A DNA stretch of 64,000 bases from Dictyostelium discoideum (lineage: Eukaryota): contig CM000154.2 in NCBI GenBank assembly GCA_000004695.1, forward strand, positions 3,360,001-3,424,000, written 5' to 3'. How positions within the stretch are numbered: position 1 is the first letter of the stretch; every line of letters starts with the position of its first letter. Shown here one piece after another: positions 10,229 through 28,611 of the stretch. Both the position numbers and the translations under genes were made by a program. A model generated the notes under the pieces. That model had not been told where the DNA came from. It ran no database searches and worked only from the letters and a program-made list of their open reading frames with translations.

Positions 10229-13200
10229 TTATTTAATTTTTATATATTTTAAAATTAAATTATACATTTCATTAAAACCTTGATTTTTAATATCATTAAT
10301 GAGTTCTTGATCAATTATTATACTATTTAATAATACATCTTTATGGTTTTCTAATAAATAATTGGAAATTAATTTACAATTCTTTGCGAATGGATTAATT
10401 TCAAAATTACCGAATAATAAATTACTAATACCTTTAGCATAATTTGAAATAATAAAATTTGTTATATCAATTCTTTCTAAAAGTATTGCCCATTTTAATA
10501 ATTTATCGATTGAAAATTCTTCTAAATCTAATTTCACCAATTCATTAATTACATCTTGAAAAGGAATTTTAAAAATACCACTTTTAAAAAATGATTTTAT
10601 AATTTCAGTTGATTGAAATTTAATTTCATGAGAAATTTTAAAAGAGTCAATATTATCTTTTAATAATGATATTGCCAATTGAGGTTCATTGATTGTTAAT
10701 AAATAACGCACACTTTTTCCATTACAAACTGGTTGAAAATAAATTTTCATTAATTCAATAACCAATAAATTAAATGAAGAATTTTTGATAAAATTAAATG
10801 AATGACCTTTATAAAAAAAGAAATGTTTTCCATAATGTGTCTTTTTTGAGAATATTGCAGATCTTGATAAATCTCTTGATGCTGGATCTTTAAGAAAAAT
10901 ATTTGATAATTTTTTATTCTTTAAATTGTAAAAGTAAAATGTATGATAGTATCCAATTGATAATGTAATGGAATTAATATCACATAATTCAATAATAAAT
11001 TCAATTTGTTGTAATGTAACATTTTTACTTTGAACTAAAAAATCAAATAGAATTTGAATCATTTCAATTGTTGTGAAATTATTAATTTCTCTTTTATCAA
11101 CTTTTTTTAATAATTGTTCAATAATTTCAATAATATCAAAAGAGTTTAAATCATTGGTTTTAATTTCACCAGTTGGAAGATTATAAATTGTAAATTCTTG
11201 ATTAAAAATTATATCTCTATCACTTGACAATGAAAAATAATTAAAAACTGTGAATGTTGTAATTTCATTTAATATATATTTAATTATTTTTAAACGATCA
11301 TTAAAATTAAAAGATTGTTTGAATAGGATTTCACAAATTATAATTGATGATTGGTTTTCAAATAAAGAGAATGCAATCTCTTTAAATGATGGGCAATTTT
11401 CAATTAATTTATCAATATTTGAAAATGAATTGAATAAACCAATAAAAAATGAACTAATACCATTTTCATTAAATAAATTTGTAAAATTAATTTCATTCAA
11501 ATAATTTAAAGTTTCATCTACCTTTTTATACATTTCCTCAGTGCATTTTCCTTGATTATCAAATGTGAAGGTTTTATTATCACCACCAATTTTAGCAAAT
11601 TTAATAATTTTCATTATTTCTTTAATACTTTCTAAATCAAAATTATTTAATAATTTTAAAAGATAATTATTGAATAATTCTTTTGGTGCATTTGGATAAT
11701 TTAATATTGCTTGTTTAACAATATCCACAGAGTTAATTACAAATGATAATGATTTGTAAAAATTTGAATAATTTGGATTATCATTATCATTTGAAGATAA
11801 TTGTGATGGTAAAAATAAATCATCCAATACTTTTAAATGATTAAATTGTGAAACAGAATCAATTTTAAAATTTGATTTTAAACCAATTAAATAATCTGAA
11901 AATTTAAATGATTTGATTGAAAAGAATAATGAGTATTCATCATCATCATCATTACCTGCATTACCATCATTATCTTCCTCTTGTTTAGATTTTAATAAAT
12001 TAATTAATTTTACCATTTGTGAAGGACAATTAAGATCAAAAGAGTATAATAATTTTGAAATTAATTTTAAAGGAAAATCAGGTACACTTTCAATTATTTC
12101 TTTTAATACATTAAATTCGCAAAATTTTAATATTGCAGATATAATGTATAACCAACCATTATATTTCATTGAAAAGTGATTATCATTTTTGAAATAAAGT
12201 TTACTAAATTCTATTACCAAGTTTGGGCTTTCAAGTAAAACTTGTTGGTTTGGGAAAAATACTAAAACTCCATTGAATCTAAAAGATGTTTCAATTAAAT
12301 ACTTTAAACCATTGATTGAAAACATTGAAAATGTATATGATACTACACTTTCACTATCGATTAAATCAAAATCATCATCATATTCACAAAGATATGAAAA
12401 ACTAAAATCTTGATGAGTTAACTCTTGTGTTAATTTTAATTTTAGAAATTTTAATTTCTCTTTTTCACATTTTAAATCTTTTATCATTTCATTAACTATT
12501 TGATCAACTTTTTTTGTATCAACCAATAAATCATTAGATTTGTAGACACATTTATATAAGAATATAAAATCATCTAAACTATAATTATTATAGTTATTTA
12601 CAACAATTGAACTTGGAAAACTCTTTTTAAAATTAATAAAACCATTAAGGAATAGTTTAATTTGTAAATCCCTATGAGCCGAGTCAAGTTTTATTATAGT
12701 TTCCAAAGGGATACTATACATTGTATCACTTATTGAATCCTCTTTTTTTGGATACAGTTCTGGATAATTATTATAAATCACCGATATAAATCCAAAATCT
12801 TCTTCTCCTTTTTCTTTTGAAAGAAATCTATATAATAATTGATTTTTTAATAAATCAATATCACTTTGTTGATTACTTTCTTTTAATGCCAAATATACAA
12901 TTTCAAAAATTTGCATTGAAGTTATATAAAATTCACTATCATATGAATTTATTTGATTAAATTGAATTGGTAATTTCATTCCAGTTTCTTCATCAATATA
13001 ATTAATGAAATATTTTAATGAAATTTCATTTTCACACTCTATTGATTGATTAATCGGATCAATTATTGAATTGATTTCTTCTTTTTTAAATTTATATAAT
13101 AATTTGATTGTATCTAAATCTTCATTACAATATTTAAAAAATTTTGATAATCCTTTTTTATCAATTCTTATATATTGATTACTAATTAATTTATCTTTTA

Positions 13201-13408
13201 ATATTGTCCATAATTTATTTTTTGAAATTAAATTCAATGATATCATATTTGAAAATTTAACTCTATTCCCAACATAATACTTTTTCATATCATCATACTC
13301 TATAACTTGTTCACCCATAACTTTAAATATTAAATTTCTAATTACAACATTTTTAAAAACTTTCCAAAATAATATTTCATTATTATCATTATTATTGTTT
13401 TTGCTCAT
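10229..13408 (-). CDS. Large (1059 aa) hypothetical protein, downstream member of a tandem paralogue pair; apparently single exon.
   Basis: Long ORF with coding-type codon usage. The N-terminal ~140 aa are nearly identical to ORF 13542..16475 (NEILFWKVFKNVVIRNLIFKVM.EQVIEYDDMKKYYVGNRVKFSNM...KNKLWTILKDKLISNQYIRIDKKGLS). No recognisable catalytic domain. Confidence 0.6.
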   Translation of the reverse strand: MSKNNNNDNNEILFWKVFKNVVIRNLIFKVMGEQVIEYDDMKKYYVGNRVKFSNMISLNLISKNKLWTILKDKLISNQYIRIDKKGLSKFFKYCNEDLDTIKLLYKFKKEEINSIIDPINQSIECENEISLKYFINYIDEETGMKLPIQFNQINSYDSEFYITSMQIFEIVYLALKESNQQSDIDLLKNQLLYRFLSKEKGEEDFGFISVIYNNYPELYPKKEDSISDTMYSIPLETIIKLDSAHRDLQIKLFLNGFINFKKSFPSSIVVNNYNNYSLDDFIFLYKCVYKSNDLLVDTKKVDQIVNEMIKDLKCEKEKLKFLKLKLTQELTHQDFSFSYLCEYDDDFDLIDSESVVSYTFSMFSINGLKYLIETSFRFNGVLVFFPNQQVLLESPNLVIEFSKLYFKNDNHFSMKYNGWLYIISAILKFCEFNVLKEIIESVPDFPLKLISKLLYSFDLNCPSQMVKLINLLKSKQEEDNDGNAGNDDDDEYSLFFSIKSFKFSDYLIGLKSNFKIDSVSQFNHLKVLDDLFLPSQLSSNDNDNPNYSNFYKSLSFVINSVDIVKQAILNYPNAPKELFNNYLLKLLNNFDLESIKEIMKIIKFAKIGGDNKTFTFDNQGKCTEEMYKKVDETLNYLNEINFTNLFNENGISSFFIGLFNSFSNIDKLIENCPSFKEIAFSLFENQSSIIICEILFKQSFNFNDRLKIIKYILNEITTFTVFNYFSLSSDRDIIFNQEFTIYNLPTGEIKTNDLNSFDIIEIIEQLLKKVDKREINNFTTIEMIQILFDFLVQSKNVTLQQIEFIIELCDINSITLSIGYYHTFYFYNLKNKKLSNIFLKDPASRDLSRSAIFSKKTHYGKHFFFYKGHSFNFIKNSSFNLLVIELMKIYFQPVCNGKSVRYLLTINEPQLAISLLKDNIDSFKISHEIKFQSTEIIKSFFKSGIFKIPFQDVINELVKLDLEEFSIDKLLKWAILLERIDITNFIISNYAKGISNLLFGNFEINPFAKNCKLISNYLLENHKDVLLNSIIIDQELINDIKNQGFNEMYNLILKYIKIK

Positions 13409-13430
13409 TGTTTGTTGAATTATTCTTGTT

Positions 13431-13467
<37 letters not shown>

Positions 13468-13541
13468 AAACCAGAAAAAAAAAAGAAAAAAAAAAAAAAA
13501 AATTCTTTAAAAAAAAAAAAAACTATTTTTTTTGTTTAATT

Positions 13542-16475
13542 TTATTTTATTTTTGTTTCTTTTGTGTCATATAAAGTTAAAATAAGATTCATAATATCAA
13601 GTCTTTTTTTAAGTGTTGCCCTTTCTAAAATTGAATTCTTGTGTAAAAATTTTATATTTTCTAATACATAAATTACATTTGAAATATTTGAAAACCAATG
13701 TGATTTGAACAACAATTTTATAAAATGTGAGGGTACAGAATCTTTGTTTGTTGTATTTTTTAAATATCTTTCCATTGATATTAAAGCTAATTTATCTTCA
13801 TTAATTTTAAATAAATAATCTATATTATTTTTGAAAAAATCACGAGGTTTTGATAAAATTACCAATTTTTTTAATAATTGAGATGTTGATAATTTTTCAA
13901 TTACATCAAGTGGAAATTGTCCAAAATCAAAATTTATACCACAATTATATTTATTAACCATTGAAAAAGAGGTTGTTTTTTTTGGTAAATAAAGTGAAGT
14001 TAAATAATTTGATAATTTAAAATTTTTTATGTTGAAATAATAAATGATATGATAAAATCCAATTATCAATTGTATTTTATTTGATTTACATATTTCCAAG
14101 AATAAATTAATTTGATCAAAATTTATATTTTTACATTTTACTAATTCATTAAATAAAATTTGAAAAACAATAAAGTTTGAAGATTCTTGAATGTTTATTT
14201 TTTTAATTATTTCATTTAAAACTTGAATTATTAAATTTGGATTTTCAAAATTAAAATTTATATTTATTTCACCACTTTTAAATTCAAAAAGATAGTTTGG
14301 TTCAGTTTCATATTTAATGCATAATCTTGAATTTGATGAGAGTTGATTTAAAATGAATAAAATTGATTCATATTGTTTTGATTTAATTAAATTAGTTATA
14401 ACCAATTCTAATGATTCATTTGGAAATGAATTGAAATCAATTAATTTAAAAGATGGACAATTTTCAATTAATTCTTTAAAAGAAAATGAATCGAATAATG
14501 ATTCGAAAAAAATACAAGTTAATTTTGGATTAATTTTAATGGTTGGAAATTGTAATTGATTTAAATTATTTAAAATATTTTCAACTTGAGTAATGTTGGT
14601 TAATTTTTTAAAATTAAAATTTGTATGAAATTGACAAAAAATAGGTGAATTAATATCTTGAATACCAATTATTTCTATAAATTGTTTAATTTTTTCAATA
14701 TCTAAATTATTTAATGAACCAATATATAATTTTTTACATATTACTGCTTTTTCTGCATTTGGGTAATTTATTAAACATCTTTTAATTGCTTCCATTGATT
14801 CTAATGAAAGTGATAAAACTGAATAATAATTATTTATTGCTTTTAATGTTGAAGTTGATATTGATTCTTGATCACTTGAAACATTAATAAAAAATTTTTT
14901 TTCAAAGAATTTTAAATCATCAACTTGTTGTTCTGTGTAAATTTCAAAATAAAATTCTAATGCTTTAAAGTAATTTTCTCTTTTTAAATACATTACACCT
15001 GGAATTCTTTCACTGACTTTTTGAATGATTTTAACAGTTGTTGATGGACATTTCACAGTGAAATCGTTTAATTTTTCAATTATAAATGGTAAATGAGAAT
15101 CTGGGAAAACATCTAATAATTCATTAATGATTTCAAATGGGTATTGATATGAAAAAATTAATTCACTAACTGGTTTCCAACTTGAAAACCCAATGTTTAA
15201 ATGATTATCATTTTCAAAGTAAATCTTAAAAAACTGTACTATTCTACCCTTTATTTCTTCAATTTTTGAAAGATTGCACATTACATAATGGTGTTTAGGA
15301 AATTTAAAAGAATTTTCAATTAAACAATTTAAACCATTGATTGAAAATGATGAAAATGTATATTCTGCAATAGTTGATAAATCTGTAGTTGTTTCCTTAC
15401 TAATTCTATCATCAAATTCATCAAAATAAGCTTTATAAAATATATTTTTATCATATTCTTTTGCAATTTTATATTTAATAAATTTAATTTTTTCAAATTC
15501 TATATTCTCTTTATATTTTAAACCTTCTTTTTCAACCATCTCTTCAATTAAATCATTCACTTGTTTTGTTGAAATTTTTTTATTATTATTATTATAATAA
15601 TGATTTATTTTTAAAAGGAATAAACAATCTTGATATGAAAATTGAGTGTAATTATTCAATATATAATAAATTGGTATTGTGCTTTTAACTTCTATAAATC
15701 CACTTTTAAAACATTTAGTTCTAAATTCATCACTTCCTTTATAGGTTAAAGTGAATAAACCATAACCAAGCTTTTCTTTATAATTTAATTCATTTGGTTT
15801 AATGAAAACATCTAAACAATTATCAAAAATATATGATAATAATTCCCATTCATTTTTAACAATTAATCTATTAAATACTTTAATAATATCAATTTTATTA
15901 TTATTTTTATTATTTTTATTATTATTTAATTTATTTCTTAATTCTTTATATAGTACATCAAGCATGGATATGGTGTTTATATGCTTATAGAATCCATTTT
16001 GAATTGAATCCAATGTTATTGGTAATTTCATTCCAGTTTCTTCATCAATATAATTAATGAAATATTTTAATGCAAGTTCATTTTCATTCTCTATTGATTG
16101 ATTTATTGGGTCAATGATTGAATTGATTTCTTCTTTTTTAAATTTATATAATAATTTAATTGTATCTAAATCTTCATTACAATTTTCAAAGAAACTTGAT
16201 AATCCTTTTTTATCAATTCTTATATATTGATTACTAATTAATTTATCTTTTAATATTGTCCATAATTTATTTTTTGAAATTAAGGCTAATGTCATATTTG
16301 AAAATTTAACTCTATTCCCAACATAATACTTTTTCATATCATCATACTCTATAACTTGTTCACTCATAACTTTAAATATTAAATTTCTAATTACAACATT
16401 TTTAAAAACTTTCCAAAATAATATTTCATTATTATCATTATTATTATCATTATCATTATTATTATTATTATTCAT
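13542..16475 (-). CDS. Large (977 aa) hypothetical protein, upstream member of the tandem paralogue pair; its stop lies only 133 bp from the start of 10229..13408.
   Basis: Same conserved N-terminus and shared internal blocks (ENCPSFK, YPNA.K). The middle of the protein has diverged. Confidence 0.6.
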   Translation of the reverse strand: MNNNNNNDNDNNNDNNEILFWKVFKNVVIRNLIFKVMSEQVIEYDDMKKYYVGNRVKFSNMTLALISKNKLWTILKDKLISNQYIRIDKKGLSSFFENCNEDLDTIKLLYKFKKEEINSIIDPINQSIENENELALKYFINYIDEETGMKLPITLDSIQNGFYKHINTISMLDVLYKELRNKLNNNKNNKNNNKIDIIKVFNRLIVKNEWELLSYIFDNCLDVFIKPNELNYKEKLGYGLFTLTYKGSDEFRTKCFKSGFIEVKSTIPIYYILNNYTQFSYQDCLFLLKINHYYNNNNKKISTKQVNDLIEEMVEKEGLKYKENIEFEKIKFIKYKIAKEYDKNIFYKAYFDEFDDRISKETTTDLSTIAEYTFSSFSINGLNCLIENSFKFPKHHYVMCNLSKIEEIKGRIVQFFKIYFENDNHLNIGFSSWKPVSELIFSYQYPFEIINELLDVFPDSHLPFIIEKLNDFTVKCPSTTVKIIQKVSERIPGVMYLKRENYFKALEFYFEIYTEQQVDDLKFFEKKFFINVSSDQESISTSTLKAINNYYSVLSLSLESMEAIKRCLINYPNAEKAVICKKLYIGSLNNLDIEKIKQFIEIIGIQDINSPIFCQFHTNFNFKKLTNITQVENILNNLNQLQFPTIKINPKLTCIFFESLFDSFSFKELIENCPSFKLIDFNSFPNESLELVITNLIKSKQYESILFILNQLSSNSRLCIKYETEPNYLFEFKSGEININFNFENPNLIIQVLNEIIKKINIQESSNFIVFQILFNELVKCKNINFDQINLFLEICKSNKIQLIIGFYHIIYYFNIKNFKLSNYLTSLYLPKKTTSFSMVNKYNCGINFDFGQFPLDVIEKLSTSQLLKKLVILSKPRDFFKNNIDYLFKINEDKLALISMERYLKNTTNKDSVPSHFIKLLFKSHWFSNISNVIYVLENIKFLHKNSILERATLKKRLDIMNLILTLYDTKETKIK

Positions 16476-16775: not shown

Positions 16776-16821
<46 letters not shown>

Positions 16822-16822
16822 A
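16776..16822. repeat. (TTTA)n microsatellite of about 11 units.
   Basis: Direct reading. Confidence 0.85.
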
Positions 16823-17249
16823 AGGAAGAGTAGAAAATACATGGGAAAATCAATACAATTGAAATAAATATTAAACTATAGTTAATTGGTGGTAATGATG
16901 ATGGTGATGATGATGAACTAATAATACTATTTGTTGTATTCCTGAAACTACAAGTACATGATGCACTATTATATTCATTACATTTATCACCTGTTAACGT
17001 CAAAATGTCTTGTGGACAACTGGATAGTGAACTTTGTAAAAAACATACACCCGCAACTTTTGTAATTGTTGTATTTTTTGGTGATCCACACCAAATACAA
17101 CATGAACCACTTGTAAAACATGTTTCCATTGTTTCTCCATAGCATTTTGAATCATCATCAATTTCCACTGATGATGATGTTTGTTCTCCATTCGATTTTA
17201 TTATAAATATTAAAAATATAATTAGAATTATAAATTTACTTAATTTCAT
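16818..17249 (-). CDS. Small secreted Cys-rich protein, probably GPI-anchored (ponticulin-like family member).
   Basis: 143 aa. Signal peptide MKLSKFIILIIFLIFIIKSNG, a Cys-rich core with a C.WC motif (CFTSGSCCIWCGSP), a Ser-rich stalk and a hydrophobic C-terminal tail (IFISIVLIFPCIFYSSF) typical of a GPI signal. Same size class as Dictyostelium ponticulin. Confidence 0.45.
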
Positions 17250-17418: not shown

Positions 17419-17572
<154 letters not shown>

Positions 17573-17582
17573 GATCAAAAAT

Positions 17583-18551
<969 letters not shown>

Positions 18552-19594: not shown

Positions 19595-22500
19595 ATGAAA
19601 TTATTATTATTGGCGCTTATTTTAGTGCTCAGTAATATTAATTTAATAAGTGGTAATGGTTTAGTTTGGCCACATCCAAGATTACCATGTAGCCCATATG
19701 ACGAAAGGGGTTGTATAAATACACAAAAATGTAGTAGTACTGATTGTGATTCATTTAAACGTAGAATGTAAATATTAAATTTATTTTTTTATTTTAATTT
19801 TTTATATTTCCTAAAAAAAAAAACAATTTGTTTATTAATTTTTTTAAAAAATAATTATTTTTAGATATTTTGATGTTGCTTATAATACAGCATTTACAAT
19901 TTATCAACATACAATTTTTAAATACTATTCTGCAAATTATTATAAAGTTGAGTTAATAGTTGGAGGTAAAGTTTATTTTATTCATAAATTTGGTCAATTT
20001 AGAGGTGATGATTGTGAATTTGATGAAATTATTCCAGCTTTTTATAAGAAAGTTCAATTTTTAGATTTATCAACACCAATTAAAGCAACAATTCAATTTT
20101 CATTTGATTTTTCATCACATCCAAAACATGCAAACATTTATTATTCCTGTATAGATGTTTGGTTATTCGACTCTGCATATTACAATTATTGCCCAACTAA
20201 TAGTGGTGGTGGAAGTGGTAATAGTGGTGGTAGTTGGTCAAGTGGTGGAAGTGGTAATAGTGGTGGTGGTTGGTCAAGTGGTGGAAGTGGTAATAGTGGT
20301 GGTAGTTGGTCAAGTGGTAATAGTGGTGGTCATTCTACAGGTGATTGCCCAACAAGTAGCGGAGGTTGGACATCTGGTAGTCACTCAAGTGGATCATGGT
20401 CATCAGGTGGTGGTAGTGGTTCATCATCAGGAGGTCAATCAAGTGGATCTTGGTCTTCAGGAGGTGGTTCATCTTCAGGAGGTCATTCAAGTGGATCTTG
20501 GTCTTCAGGAGGTGGTTCATCTGCAGGAGGTGGTTCATCTTCAGGAAGTCATTCAAGTGGATCTTGGTCAAGTGGTGGCTCATCTTCAGGAGGTCAATCA
20601 AGTGGATCTTGGTCTTCAGGAGGTGGTTCATCTTCGGGAGGTCAATCAAGTGGATCTTGGTCTTCAGGAGGTGGTTCATCTTCAGGAAGTCATTCAAGTG
20701 GATCTTGGTCAAGTGGTGGCTCATCTTCAGGAAGTCATTCAAGTGGATCTTGGTCATCAGGTGGTAGCTCATCATCAAGTGGAAACAGCGGATGGATGAC
20801 TGCTTCTGGGGGTAATACTGGTGGAAATACTGGTGGAAATACTGGTGGAAATACCGGTGGCCAATCAAGTGGAAACAGCGGATGGATGACTGCTTCTGGT
20901 GGTAATACTGGTGGTAATACTGGTGGAAATACCGGTGGTCAATCAAGTGGAAACAGCGGATGGATGACTGCTTCTGGTGGTAATACTGGTGGAAATACTG
21001 GTGGAAATACCGGTGGCCAATCAAGTGGAAGCTCTTCATCAGGTGGCAATAGTGGTTGGTTAACATCTTCTGGCAGTAATAGTGGAAGTTCTTCGTCAGG
21101 TAGTAATAGTGGTTGGTTAACATCTTCTGGTAATAGTGTAAGTTCTTCATCAGGTGGTAATAGTGGCTGGTTAACATCTTCTGGTGGTAATAGCGGAGGC
21201 AATAGTGGAAGTTCTTCATCAGGTGGCAATAGTGGTTGGTTAACATCTTCAGGTGGTAACAGTGGTGGTTCCTCATCTTCAGGCAGCAATAGTGGTGCCT
21301 CATCTTCAGGTGACAATACTGGAGGTAATAGCGGTTGGTTGACATCATCTGGTGGTAATACTGGAGGTAATAGTGGTGCTGCAACCGGAGGAAATAGTGG
21401 AGGTAACAGTGGTGCCTCATCTTCAGGAGGTAATAGTGGCGGTGCTTCATCATCTGGTGGCAATACTGGAGGTAATAGCGGTTGGTTGACATCATCTGGT
21501 GGTAATACTGGAGGTAATAGTGGTGCTGCAACCGGAGGAAATAGTGGAGGTAACAGTGGTGCCTCATCTTCAGGAGGTAATAGTGGTTGGTTGACCGGCG
21601 GTGTTACTGGTGGCAATAGTGGAGGTGCTACTGGAGGTAATAGCGGTGGTGCTACTGGAGGTAATAGTGGAGGTGCTACTGGAGGAAATAGCGGTGGTGC
21701 TACTGGAGGCAATAGCGGCGGTGCTTCATCATCTGGTGGCAATAGTGGAGGTGCTACAGGAGGTAATAGCGGTGGTGCTACTGGAGGCAATAGCGGTGGT
21801 GCTACTGGAGGTAATAGCGGTGGTGCTACTGGAGGCAATAGTGGAGGTGCTACAGGTGGTAACAGTGGAGGTGCTACTGGAGGAAATAGCGGCGGTGCTT
21901 CATCATCTGGTGGCAATACTGGAGGTAATAGCGGCGGTGCTACTGGAGGTAATAGCGGCGGTGCTACTGGAGGCAATAGTGGAGGTGCTACAGGTGGTAA
22001 CAGTGGAGGTGCTACTGGAGGAAATAGTGGAGGTAACAGTGGTGCCTCATCTTCAGGAGGTAATAGCGGTTGGTTAACAGGTGGTGCTACTGGTGGTAAT
22101 AGTGGAGGTGCTACTGGAGGAAATAGTGGCGCTGCAACCGGAGGAAATAGTGGTGCTACTGGTGGTAATAGTGGAGGAAATAGTGGCGCTGCAACCGGAG
22201 GAAATATTGGAGGTGCTTCAAGTGGTTCCAGTTCTTCAGGAGGTAATAGCGGTTGGTTAACAGGAGGCGCTACTGGAGGTAATAGTGGCGGTGCTACTGG
22301 AGGTAATAGTGGCGGTGCTACTGGAGGTAATAGTGGCGGTGCTACTGGAGGTAATAGTGGAGGTGCTACTGGAGGTAATAGTGGAGGTGCTACTGGTGGT
22401 AATAGTGGTGCTGCAACTGGAGCAAATAGTGGTGCTGCAACTGGAGCAAATAGTGGCGCTGCAACTGGAGCAAATAGTGGTGCTGCAACTGGTGCAAATA

Positions 22501-23123
22501 GTGGAAACAATGCCGCTGTAACTGGTGCTGCAAATGGAAATAATGGCGCTGCAGCTGGAGCAAATAGTGGTGCCGCAACTGCTGCAAATAGTGGTGCCGC
22601 AACTGCTGCAAATAGTGGTGCCGCAACTGCTGCAAATAGAGGAAACAATGCCGCTGCAACTGGTGCTGCAAATGGAAATAATGGCGCTGCAGCTGGAGCA
22701 AATAGTGGTGCCGCAACTGCTGCAAATAGTGGTGCTGCAAATAGTGGTGCTGCAACTGCTGCAAATAGTGGTGCTGCAGCTGGAGCAAATAGTGGTGCTG
22801 CAACTGCTGCAAATAGTGGCGCTGCAACTGCTGCAAGTGGTGGAAATGGTGCAAGTGGTGCTGCAAACCCTGGTTCAATAGTAACTCCAAATGATCAAAA
22901 TGTTTCTCCATTATCGAACTCTGATGCTGCAGCAACCGCAGCATCAACTACAGGCAGAAACCCAAGAAATCCAACAAGTAGAGCTCCAACGGTCACACCA
23001 ACGCCAACCTCTTCAGCTGAAGAACCAGCTGCTGGTGGCGAAGATTCAAGTGCAATCTCCAAATATAGTATTCAATCATTTGGTATCTTTGTTTTATCAA
23101 TGATAATATATTTAGTAATTTAA
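19595..23123 (+). CDS. Secreted, probably GPI-anchored mucin-like glycoprotein. It has an N-terminal Cys-containing globular domain of about 190 aa followed by ~900 aa of Gly/Ser/Asn/Thr/Ala low-complexity repeats. 2 exons: 19595..19767 and 19865..23123, intron 19768..19864.
   Basis: Signal peptide MKLLLLALILVLSNINLISG. The donor is at|GTAAAT (phase 2) and the TTTTAG acceptor joins to frame 0, which stays open through ORF 20796..23123 (the listed M is internal). The C-terminus GEDSSAISKYSIQSFGIFVLSMIIYLVI is a hydrophobic GPI-type tail. The body consists of 24-nt GGNSGGAT units punctuated by GGNSGWLT. Confidence 0.65.
20200..22860 (+). repeat. Coding minisatellite: degenerate tandem 24-nt (8-aa GGNSGGAT / SSGGHSSGSW) units inside the mucin-like gene.
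   Basis: Visible periodicity of ggtggtaatagtggaggtgctact and related units. It generates spurious ORFs in the other five frames (20155..20799, 20335..21567, 20939..22648, 21601..22077, 22390..22947 and others). Confidence 0.85.
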
Positions 23124-23268
23124 AATAACTAATATTCTTTATATATATATGAAAATAAAATAATAATAATAAAAAAAATTATAAAAATAAAAAAATAAAT
23201 ACAAATCTAAAATTTTAAAATAATATATTTGTATTATTAATATTATTAATATTATTATTTTATTTTTA

Positions 23269-25551: not shown

Positions 25552-28611
<3,060 letters not shown>

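Follow-up and report, generated by a model that had tools for sequence, protein, structure and literature searches.

Domain-restricted interlocus gene conversion in an old tandem gene pair of Dictyostelium discoideum

Two genes of about 1000 codons, referred to here as A and B, lie head to tail in a stretch of 64,000 nucleotides of the Dictyostelium discoideum genome (GenBank assembly GCA_000004695.1, contig CM000154.2, positions 3,360,001 to 3,424,000). This stretch is called the window in the following, and the genome to which it belongs AX4. The bodies of A and B have diverged almost to saturation, whereas about 430 bp at the 5' ends of both genes have been homogenised by interlocus gene conversion, which is restricted to one domain and was superimposed on an old duplication. 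The conversion took place independently in at least two lineages, the discoideum complex and D. dimigraforme. The best joint explanation of all data, which we hold with good confidence, is that A and B form an old tandem pair of a dictyostelid-specific family, with an ankyrin-like N-terminal module, a converted 5' end and an alpha-solenoid body. The process itself is a known one and the pair is not a new kind of system; it is a clean and well-delimited example. The positions of the elements within the window are as follows (ORF, open reading frame; aa, amino acids; CDS, coding sequence).

13542 to 16475, minus strand: gene A, the upstream copy, DDB_G0289897 / Q54GW1, one uninterrupted ORF of 977 aa.
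10229 to 13408, minus strand: gene B, the downstream copy, DDB_G0289895, one uninterrupted ORF of 1059 aa.
13409 to 13541, minus strand: spacer rich in A/T homopolymers, 133 bp from the stop codon of A to the ATG of B.
16018 to 16445, minus strand: conversion tract in A, CDS nucleotides 31 to 458, residues ~17 to 153.
12966 to 13396, minus strand: conversion tract in B, CDS nucleotides 13 to 443.

An earlier examination of this DNA, which used the letters and the ORF translations and is called the sequence-only reading below, had described a head-to-tail tandem duplication of a gene of about 1000 aa. Its ORF coordinates, the minus strand and the spacer of 133 bp were all found to be correct. 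The two genes are located in direct orientation with the copies 3.1 kb apart, in DNA of ~20% GC with poly-Asn tracts, and they are homologous from end to end (37% identity over 1018 columns, E=6e-141, BLASTP). The protein sequence of A is identical to DDB_G0289897 / Q54GW1. The search of other dictyostelid genomes that had been proposed was carried out; it revealed the tandem in four relatives and the family in further dictyostelids. For this comparison five syntenic loci were fetched, from ACTFIR (a divergent 'D. discoideum'), ACTFIZ (D. cf. discoideum), D. citrinum, D. dimigraforme and D. firmibasis. The first four of these carry the A-B tandem, and the flanks are alike in each genome, with a small 142-aa gene upstream and the Ccdc124 gene downstream. 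Including AX4, A and B are thus both intact in five genomes whose synteny is conserved, and the ORFs of all ten additional genes from the fetched loci are intact as well. Using a word-indexed search, close homologues were found solely in the D. discoideum clade.

The conversion tract has sharp edges. Just after the poly-Asn leader the tracts of A and B share 94.9% nucleotide identity over 431 nt, whereas the identity in the remaining ~2.4 kb is ~53%, close to the background for such a base composition. The 5' edge is the poly-Asn microsatellite and the 3' edge lies after the codons for 'GMKLPI'. At this same place the identity drops in all five genomes from 86-100% to ~53% within ~20 codons. 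Perfectly identical runs of 72-88 nt within the tract are broken by a few small patches of difference; in AX4 these amount to 17 codon differences and one indel, which are mostly derived changes specific to A. The shared sequence is not of low complexity, which is limited to the poly-Asn leader in front of it, and a low-complexity match as the source of the N-terminal identity can be dismissed. The tract amounts to ~14% of the gene length and corresponds to a single structural domain; its end on the GMKLPI side falls in a loop directly before the next predicted helix pair.

To separate the history of this segment from that of the rest, synonymous (dS) and non-synonymous (dN) divergence were calculated by the method of Nei and Gojobori on a codon alignment in which the N-domain (A residues 17-153) was split from the remaining gene body. 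In the N-domain dS between A and B was 0.14 in AX4, 0.12 in ACTFIR, 0.08 in ACTFIZ, 0.21 in D. dimigraforme and 0.36 in D. citrinum. In contrast, the bodies of A and B differ across the genomes by a dS of 0.76-1.1 and a dN of ~0.7. Orthologues of different species show about the same pooled dS in both parts (N-domain 0.34-0.39, body 0.39-0.47). The mean dS of the orthologue N-domains was 0.43 compared with 0.14 between A and B for AX4, and 0.47 compared with 0.21 for D. dimigraforme, and in none of 1000 codon bootstraps for each of these two genomes did the dS of the paralogues reach that of the orthologues. Since the synonymous rate of the N-domain is ordinary between orthologues, codon-level constraint cannot explain the low dS between the paralogues.

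The trees agree with this picture. A neighbour-joining (NJ) tree of the bodies separates A and B into reciprocally monophyletic groups, each with 100% bootstrap support. In the NJ tree of the N-domains A and B of D. dimigraforme group together (100%), as do the six sequences of the discoideum complex (100%) and A and B of D. citrinum (71%). This conflict between body and N-domain recurs when outgroups are added. Within the discoideum complex the N-domain of A from AX4 groups with A from ACTFIR, and B with B; therefore the last conversion predates the split of AX4 and ACTFIR. The pairwise alignment and the dN/dS analysis that had been suggested for the pair hence establish paralogy, but the near-identity of the first ~140 aa, which is real at the level reported above, is not retained similarity; dS and trees show that it arose by conversion.

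Could very strong purifying selection alone, without any exchange of DNA, have kept the N-terminal segments identical? No other part of the family is as conserved as the N-domain, whose protein sequence is almost invariant in 12 of 12 aligned sequences, and the ratio of dN to dS (omega) is ~0.25 there versus 0.4-0.6 in the body. Selection on the protein leaves synonymous differences behind, however, and at the same codons dS between A and B is only 0.14-0.21 in comparison with 0.43-0.47 between orthologues, for which the synonymous sites of the segment are not constrained. In addition, the clustering of the N-domains by species with full bootstrap support in D. dimigraforme and the discoideum complex, and the long identical runs, are not expected from selection alone, which we consider very improbable as an explanation.

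The duplication is older than the conversion. Orthologues from D. discoideum, D. citrinum and D. dimigraforme are present in both the A and the B clade (100% each), and therefore the duplication predates the split of these three species. An extremely unlikely alternative is a young duplication whose true age is shown by the 5' end and whose bodies were driven apart by very fast evolution or positive selection. The body of A does evolve fast (omega ~0.59, and close to or over 1 in a few windows), and only a single copy is found at the syntenic site of D. firmibasis. Against this, dS between the bodies of A and B is ~0.8-1.1, so that the synonymous sites are as diverged as the non-synonymous ones, and the clades described above each span three species. 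Furthermore, paralogues from D. purpureum, D. firmibasis and D. discoideum were added as outgroups to root the tree, and the single gene of the D. firmibasis locus was then placed on the B side with 100% support. This position implies that the duplication is older than the split of D. firmibasis and that A was lost in this species, provided that the tree topology is correct; long-branch attraction of the fast-evolving A clade to the outgroup may lie behind the placement.

The D. firmibasis site (locus L003, 9672 to 13520) contains a stand-alone B-like gene and no remnant of A. If the homogenised 5' repeats recombined unequally, exactly one gene unit would be lost and the remaining gene would have a B body, which would fit the old tandem with a converted 5' end. 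The clean state of the locus is consistent with such a deletion of one unit; as direct repeats of 430 bp the tracts are plausible substrates for it, and it could explain why D. firmibasis has a single copy.

The spacer of AX4 consists mostly of T and A homopolymers, and an AATAAA hexamer overlaps the stop codon of A. From its shortness the sequence-only reading had concluded that terminator and promoter must be extremely compact. The length of 133 bp is real, but it is not a conserved feature; the spacers of ACTFIR, ACTFIZ, D. citrinum and D. dimigraforme measure 262, 123, 607 and 2124 bp, respectively. Hence little can be concluded from this length as to whether terminator or promoter are unusually compact. 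In D. dimigraforme the spacer of 2.1 kb (locus L002, 12944 to 15067) holds a called gene of 107 aa (13868-14396), which the other genomes lack.

A short spacer that is A/T-rich like Dictyostelium introns could also be an intron or a read-through linker, with A and B as exons of one spliced gene or as a co-transcribed unit. We assign hardly any probability to this arrangement. A ends in a stop codon, and B opens with an ATG of its own, followed by a poly-Asn leader and the whole N-terminal domain. The variable spacer (123-2124 bp), with another called gene inside it in D. dimigraforme, and the B-like gene that stands alone in D. firmibasis speak against one gene, and independent annotations call two genes per genome. 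The two ORFs are separate in all five genomes.

Both copies are under purifying selection, which is more relaxed in A. Among orthologues omega of the body is ~0.59 for A (up to 0.76 in close comparisons) and ~0.42 for B, which makes A the faster-evolving copy. A few windows of 60 codons in A show an omega near or above 1; this is insufficient for a claim of positive selection. Taking the intact ORFs and the omega values below 1 together, both A and B are functional. The higher omega of A and its loss in D. firmibasis might be read as signs that one copy, most likely A, is decaying or non-functional and is open by chance. Such a decay is very unlikely, since without selection stop codons would build up quickly at 20% GC, but A has remained an intact ORF (~980-1016 codons) in each of the five genomes with this gene, across a dS of up to ~0.5, and its omega is clearly below 1 over 800 codons.

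The A protein of ACTFIR is 92% identical to that of AX4, and hyper-polymorphism as known from allorecognition genes was considered for this difference of 8%. The neighbouring genes Ccdc124, the 142-aa gene and SIR2 display a dS of 0.09-0.13 between AX4 and ACTFIR. Because these flanking genes are equally diverged, ACTFIR represents a divergent lineage and A shows no excess polymorphism.

To identify more distant relatives a family profile was searched against 1.84 billion representative proteins, which yielded 34 matches at E<=1e-3. Twenty of these were looked up, and all were dictyostelid except one without a stated species. The description of a lineage-restricted, multi-copy family therefore stands for all matches with a species on record, whereas the designation 'orphan' has to be given up: relatives exist in D. 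purpureum (several), in Tieghemostelium lacteum (one), as further paralogues in D. firmibasis, D. citrinum and D. cf. discoideum, in D. dimigraforme, and elsewhere in D. discoideum (DDB_G0267878 and DDB_G0274919). A word-indexed search with the N-domain alignment gave nothing useful and missed relatives that the exhaustive profile search found. Most family matches cover just the N-terminal ~130-140 residues, and a few extend over the full length. The consensus of this domain reads LFWKVFxNxYLxNxIF ... GNRIKFxxIxSLxWM ... LLKDKL. Compared with a family-wide hidden Markov model (HMM) built from 54 N-domains, A and B scored E=4e-62 and 1.8e-63, which by profile similarity identifies both as members of an unnamed dictyostelid 'LFWKVF' N-domain family, defined here by this profile. 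Two D. purpureum relatives, P0019 and P0031 (DICPUDRAFT_98535 and DICPUDRAFT_80703), are located on one contig of 58 kb with nearly adjacent gene numbers. Local duplication of the family may thus recur in other species, as this pair suggests.

Structure prediction of the conserved N-terminus, which the sequence-only reading had proposed, led to a result contrary to its claim that no recognisable domain is present. In terms of Pfam sequence models the claim is correct; at the level of the predicted fold the N-domain appears ankyrin-like. The AlphaFold2 model has a predicted local distance difference test score (pLDDT) of 90 and a predicted template-modelling score (pTM) of 0.80; an ankyrin-repeat fold of the ~140-aa N-terminal module is thus a high-confidence prediction. 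The model displays stacked helix-turn-helix repeats of ~33 residues with hairpin loops, arranged as two capping helices followed by about three degenerate ankyrin-type repeats. The conversion tract would accordingly encode a capped, cryptic ankyrin module. A model of the full-length protein was poor (pLDDT 58), all-alpha and matched generic solenoids only. Sub-threshold matches to Ank_4 or Ank_2 were obtained for 2 of 23 N-domain segments, and some relatives show marginal Ank_2 or Ank_4 matches directly after the N-domain; the relative P0021 is marginally over the Ank_4 cut-off (23.6 versus 22.7 bits). In comparison with known ankyrin repeats, identity in the module is 7-14%, the family has its own two-helix N-terminal cap ('LFWKVFxNxYLxNxIF'), and a long solenoid of ~850 aa that does not look like ankyrin repeats follows behind the module.

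Several findings weigh against our interpretation of the pair. In D. citrinum the dS between the paralogues (0.36) is not significantly below that between orthologues; therefore conversion in this species is old or absent. The conversion in the discoideum complex was not very recent either, as indicated by the grouping of the N-domains by paralogue and by the codon differences and the indel in the tract. The dS values of the N-domain are based on ~137 codons in a genome of ~20% GC and have wide confidence intervals, and a signature of GC-biased conversion was not detected, with similar GC3 in tract and body. The ankyrin assignment is based on a predicted structure. Pfam gave no match in A or B at E<=1, with the Ank models below threshold, Foldseek against PDB gave no significant match, and the family profile matched no solved structure by sequence at E<=1. 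Finally, a literature search with four D. discoideum gene identifiers retrieved no papers in the searched corpus.

What the proteins do is suggested by their architecture. A membrane or secreted protein was considered and rejected: no hydrophobic segment exceeds a Kyte-Doolittle value of 1.4, and no transmembrane or signal-like segment was found. The UniRef label 'Ubiquinone biosynthesis protein' for Q54GW1/DDB_G0289897 finds no support in Pfam or in profile searches; it was disregarded as an apparent mis-annotation that has been propagated. For the biochemical function of A and B we infer that proteins of this type are probably soluble and intracellular, and serve as interaction scaffolds or adaptors. 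By functional analogy only, they may be compared with F-box and ASB (ankyrin-SOCS box) adaptors, which likewise combine a conserved terminal module of a multigene family with a fast-diverging repeat region and grow by local duplication. In contrast to those, the conserved module of the putative adaptors A and B would itself be ankyrin-like. F-box family models did not match A, B, ten relatives or the 23 N-domain segments, and no SOCS-box, BTB or other ligase-docking domain was detected by Pfam in A, B, the relatives or the N-domain segments.

A plausible mechanism would start from purifying selection (omega ~0.25), which would slow the divergence of the 5' segment. A segment that changes so slowly could retain the similarity that homologous-recombination repair needs to copy from the neighbour at a distance of 3.1 kb. 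The tract would then stop where the similarity collapses to ~53%, with the diverged body blocking any extension, and the arrangement would be self-reinforcing. At the protein level the N-module could be a protein-binding platform common to the whole family, while the divergent body would give each paralogue its specificity. One may go further and assume that the conversion is maintained by selection, because a partner or hub that A and B have in common requires the same ankyrin-like N-module from both. We consider this unlikely. If it were true, A and B might be interchangeable or heterodimerising adaptors, for example, with bodies that track different and perhaps fast-changing targets like bacterial prey, parasites or kin/self cues of the social cycle, and the family would be a dictyostelid-specific system of a 'common dock plus variable sensor'.

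Classic examples of interlocus gene conversion are found in the globin, opsin and RHD/RHCE pairs. The A/B pair resembles such pairs in a segment that is closer between paralogues of one genome than between orthologues, in sharp tract edges, in conflicting trees of tract and flank and in closely spaced direct copies (3.1 kb). Interlocus conversion and partial concerted evolution are described for long-lived mammalian gene pairs and 'islands of divergence' (PMC2720389, PMC3728101). Unlike in the known conversion pairs, the tract of A and B covers only ~14% of the gene and a single structural domain, while the rest is near saturation, the boundary is the same in at least four species, and the GC-biased signature is missing. 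The understanding of the mechanism is unchanged by this case; its value lies in annotation and as a teaching example. Two long-standing 'hypothetical proteins' and about 30 relatives can now be assigned to a family and given a predicted fold and a domain boundary. The pair also documents clearly delimited concerted evolution of a single domain in Dictyostelium; in pairs of this kind the dating of duplications and dN/dS values from whole-gene alignments would be misleading.

A further gene of the window had been proposed as a distant third paralogue of A and B.

25552 to 28611, minus strand: poly-Asn-rich gene of 1019 aa, in which the similarity to A and B is limited to a short N-terminal motif.

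This relationship failed every statistical test applied (BLASTP, hhalign and the N-domain HMM). BLASTP gave E=0.086 against A and >2 against B, the hhalign probability against the family profile was 0.9%, and the family-wide N-domain HMM did not recover the gene among 188 ORFs of the window even at E<=100. Its first 368 aa were used as query in a word-indexed database search, which had no matches and failed to retrieve even the gene itself. The gene is present in AX4 and ACTFIR with 90% aa identity. The syntenic position of D. dimigraforme and D. firmibasis lacks it; there only ~1.1 kb separate the SIR2 gene from the ubiquitin-like gene and leave no room for it. This indicates a separate history, and the gene looks like a young, lineage-specific insertion. 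It is rather doubtful that it is a third, very remote member of a superfamily with an 'F..VF.N..I...IF' helix and degenerate ankyrin repeats, although among the real genes of the window the short motif occurs collinearly in exactly this gene, A and B. Other hints in this direction are a marginal, sub-threshold Ank_3 match at residues 219-243 (E=0.001) and weak collinear BLASTP matches to the relatives P0021 and P0024 over the ankyrin region (E 0.7-0.9). Judged by these comparisons the gene is not a demonstrable paralogue, and at most it may be another cryptic ankyrin-type protein.

Some other features of the window were noted. A block at ~20000 to 23200 has 40-47% GC in a window of ~20% GC. 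Within this block an ORF of 775 aa at 20796 to 23123 on the plus strand consists of Gly/Ser/Asn/Thr repeats (GGNSGG/GGATGG units) and ends in a hydrophobic tail as in GPI-anchored or mucin-like surface proteins; a syntenic gene is called in all related loci. The 142-aa gene upstream of the tandem (~16820 to 17248) is Cys-rich and signal-peptide-like. Between this gene and a gene at 17871 to 18551 an uninterrupted (AAT)n microsatellite of about 150 bp is located (~17420 to 17570).

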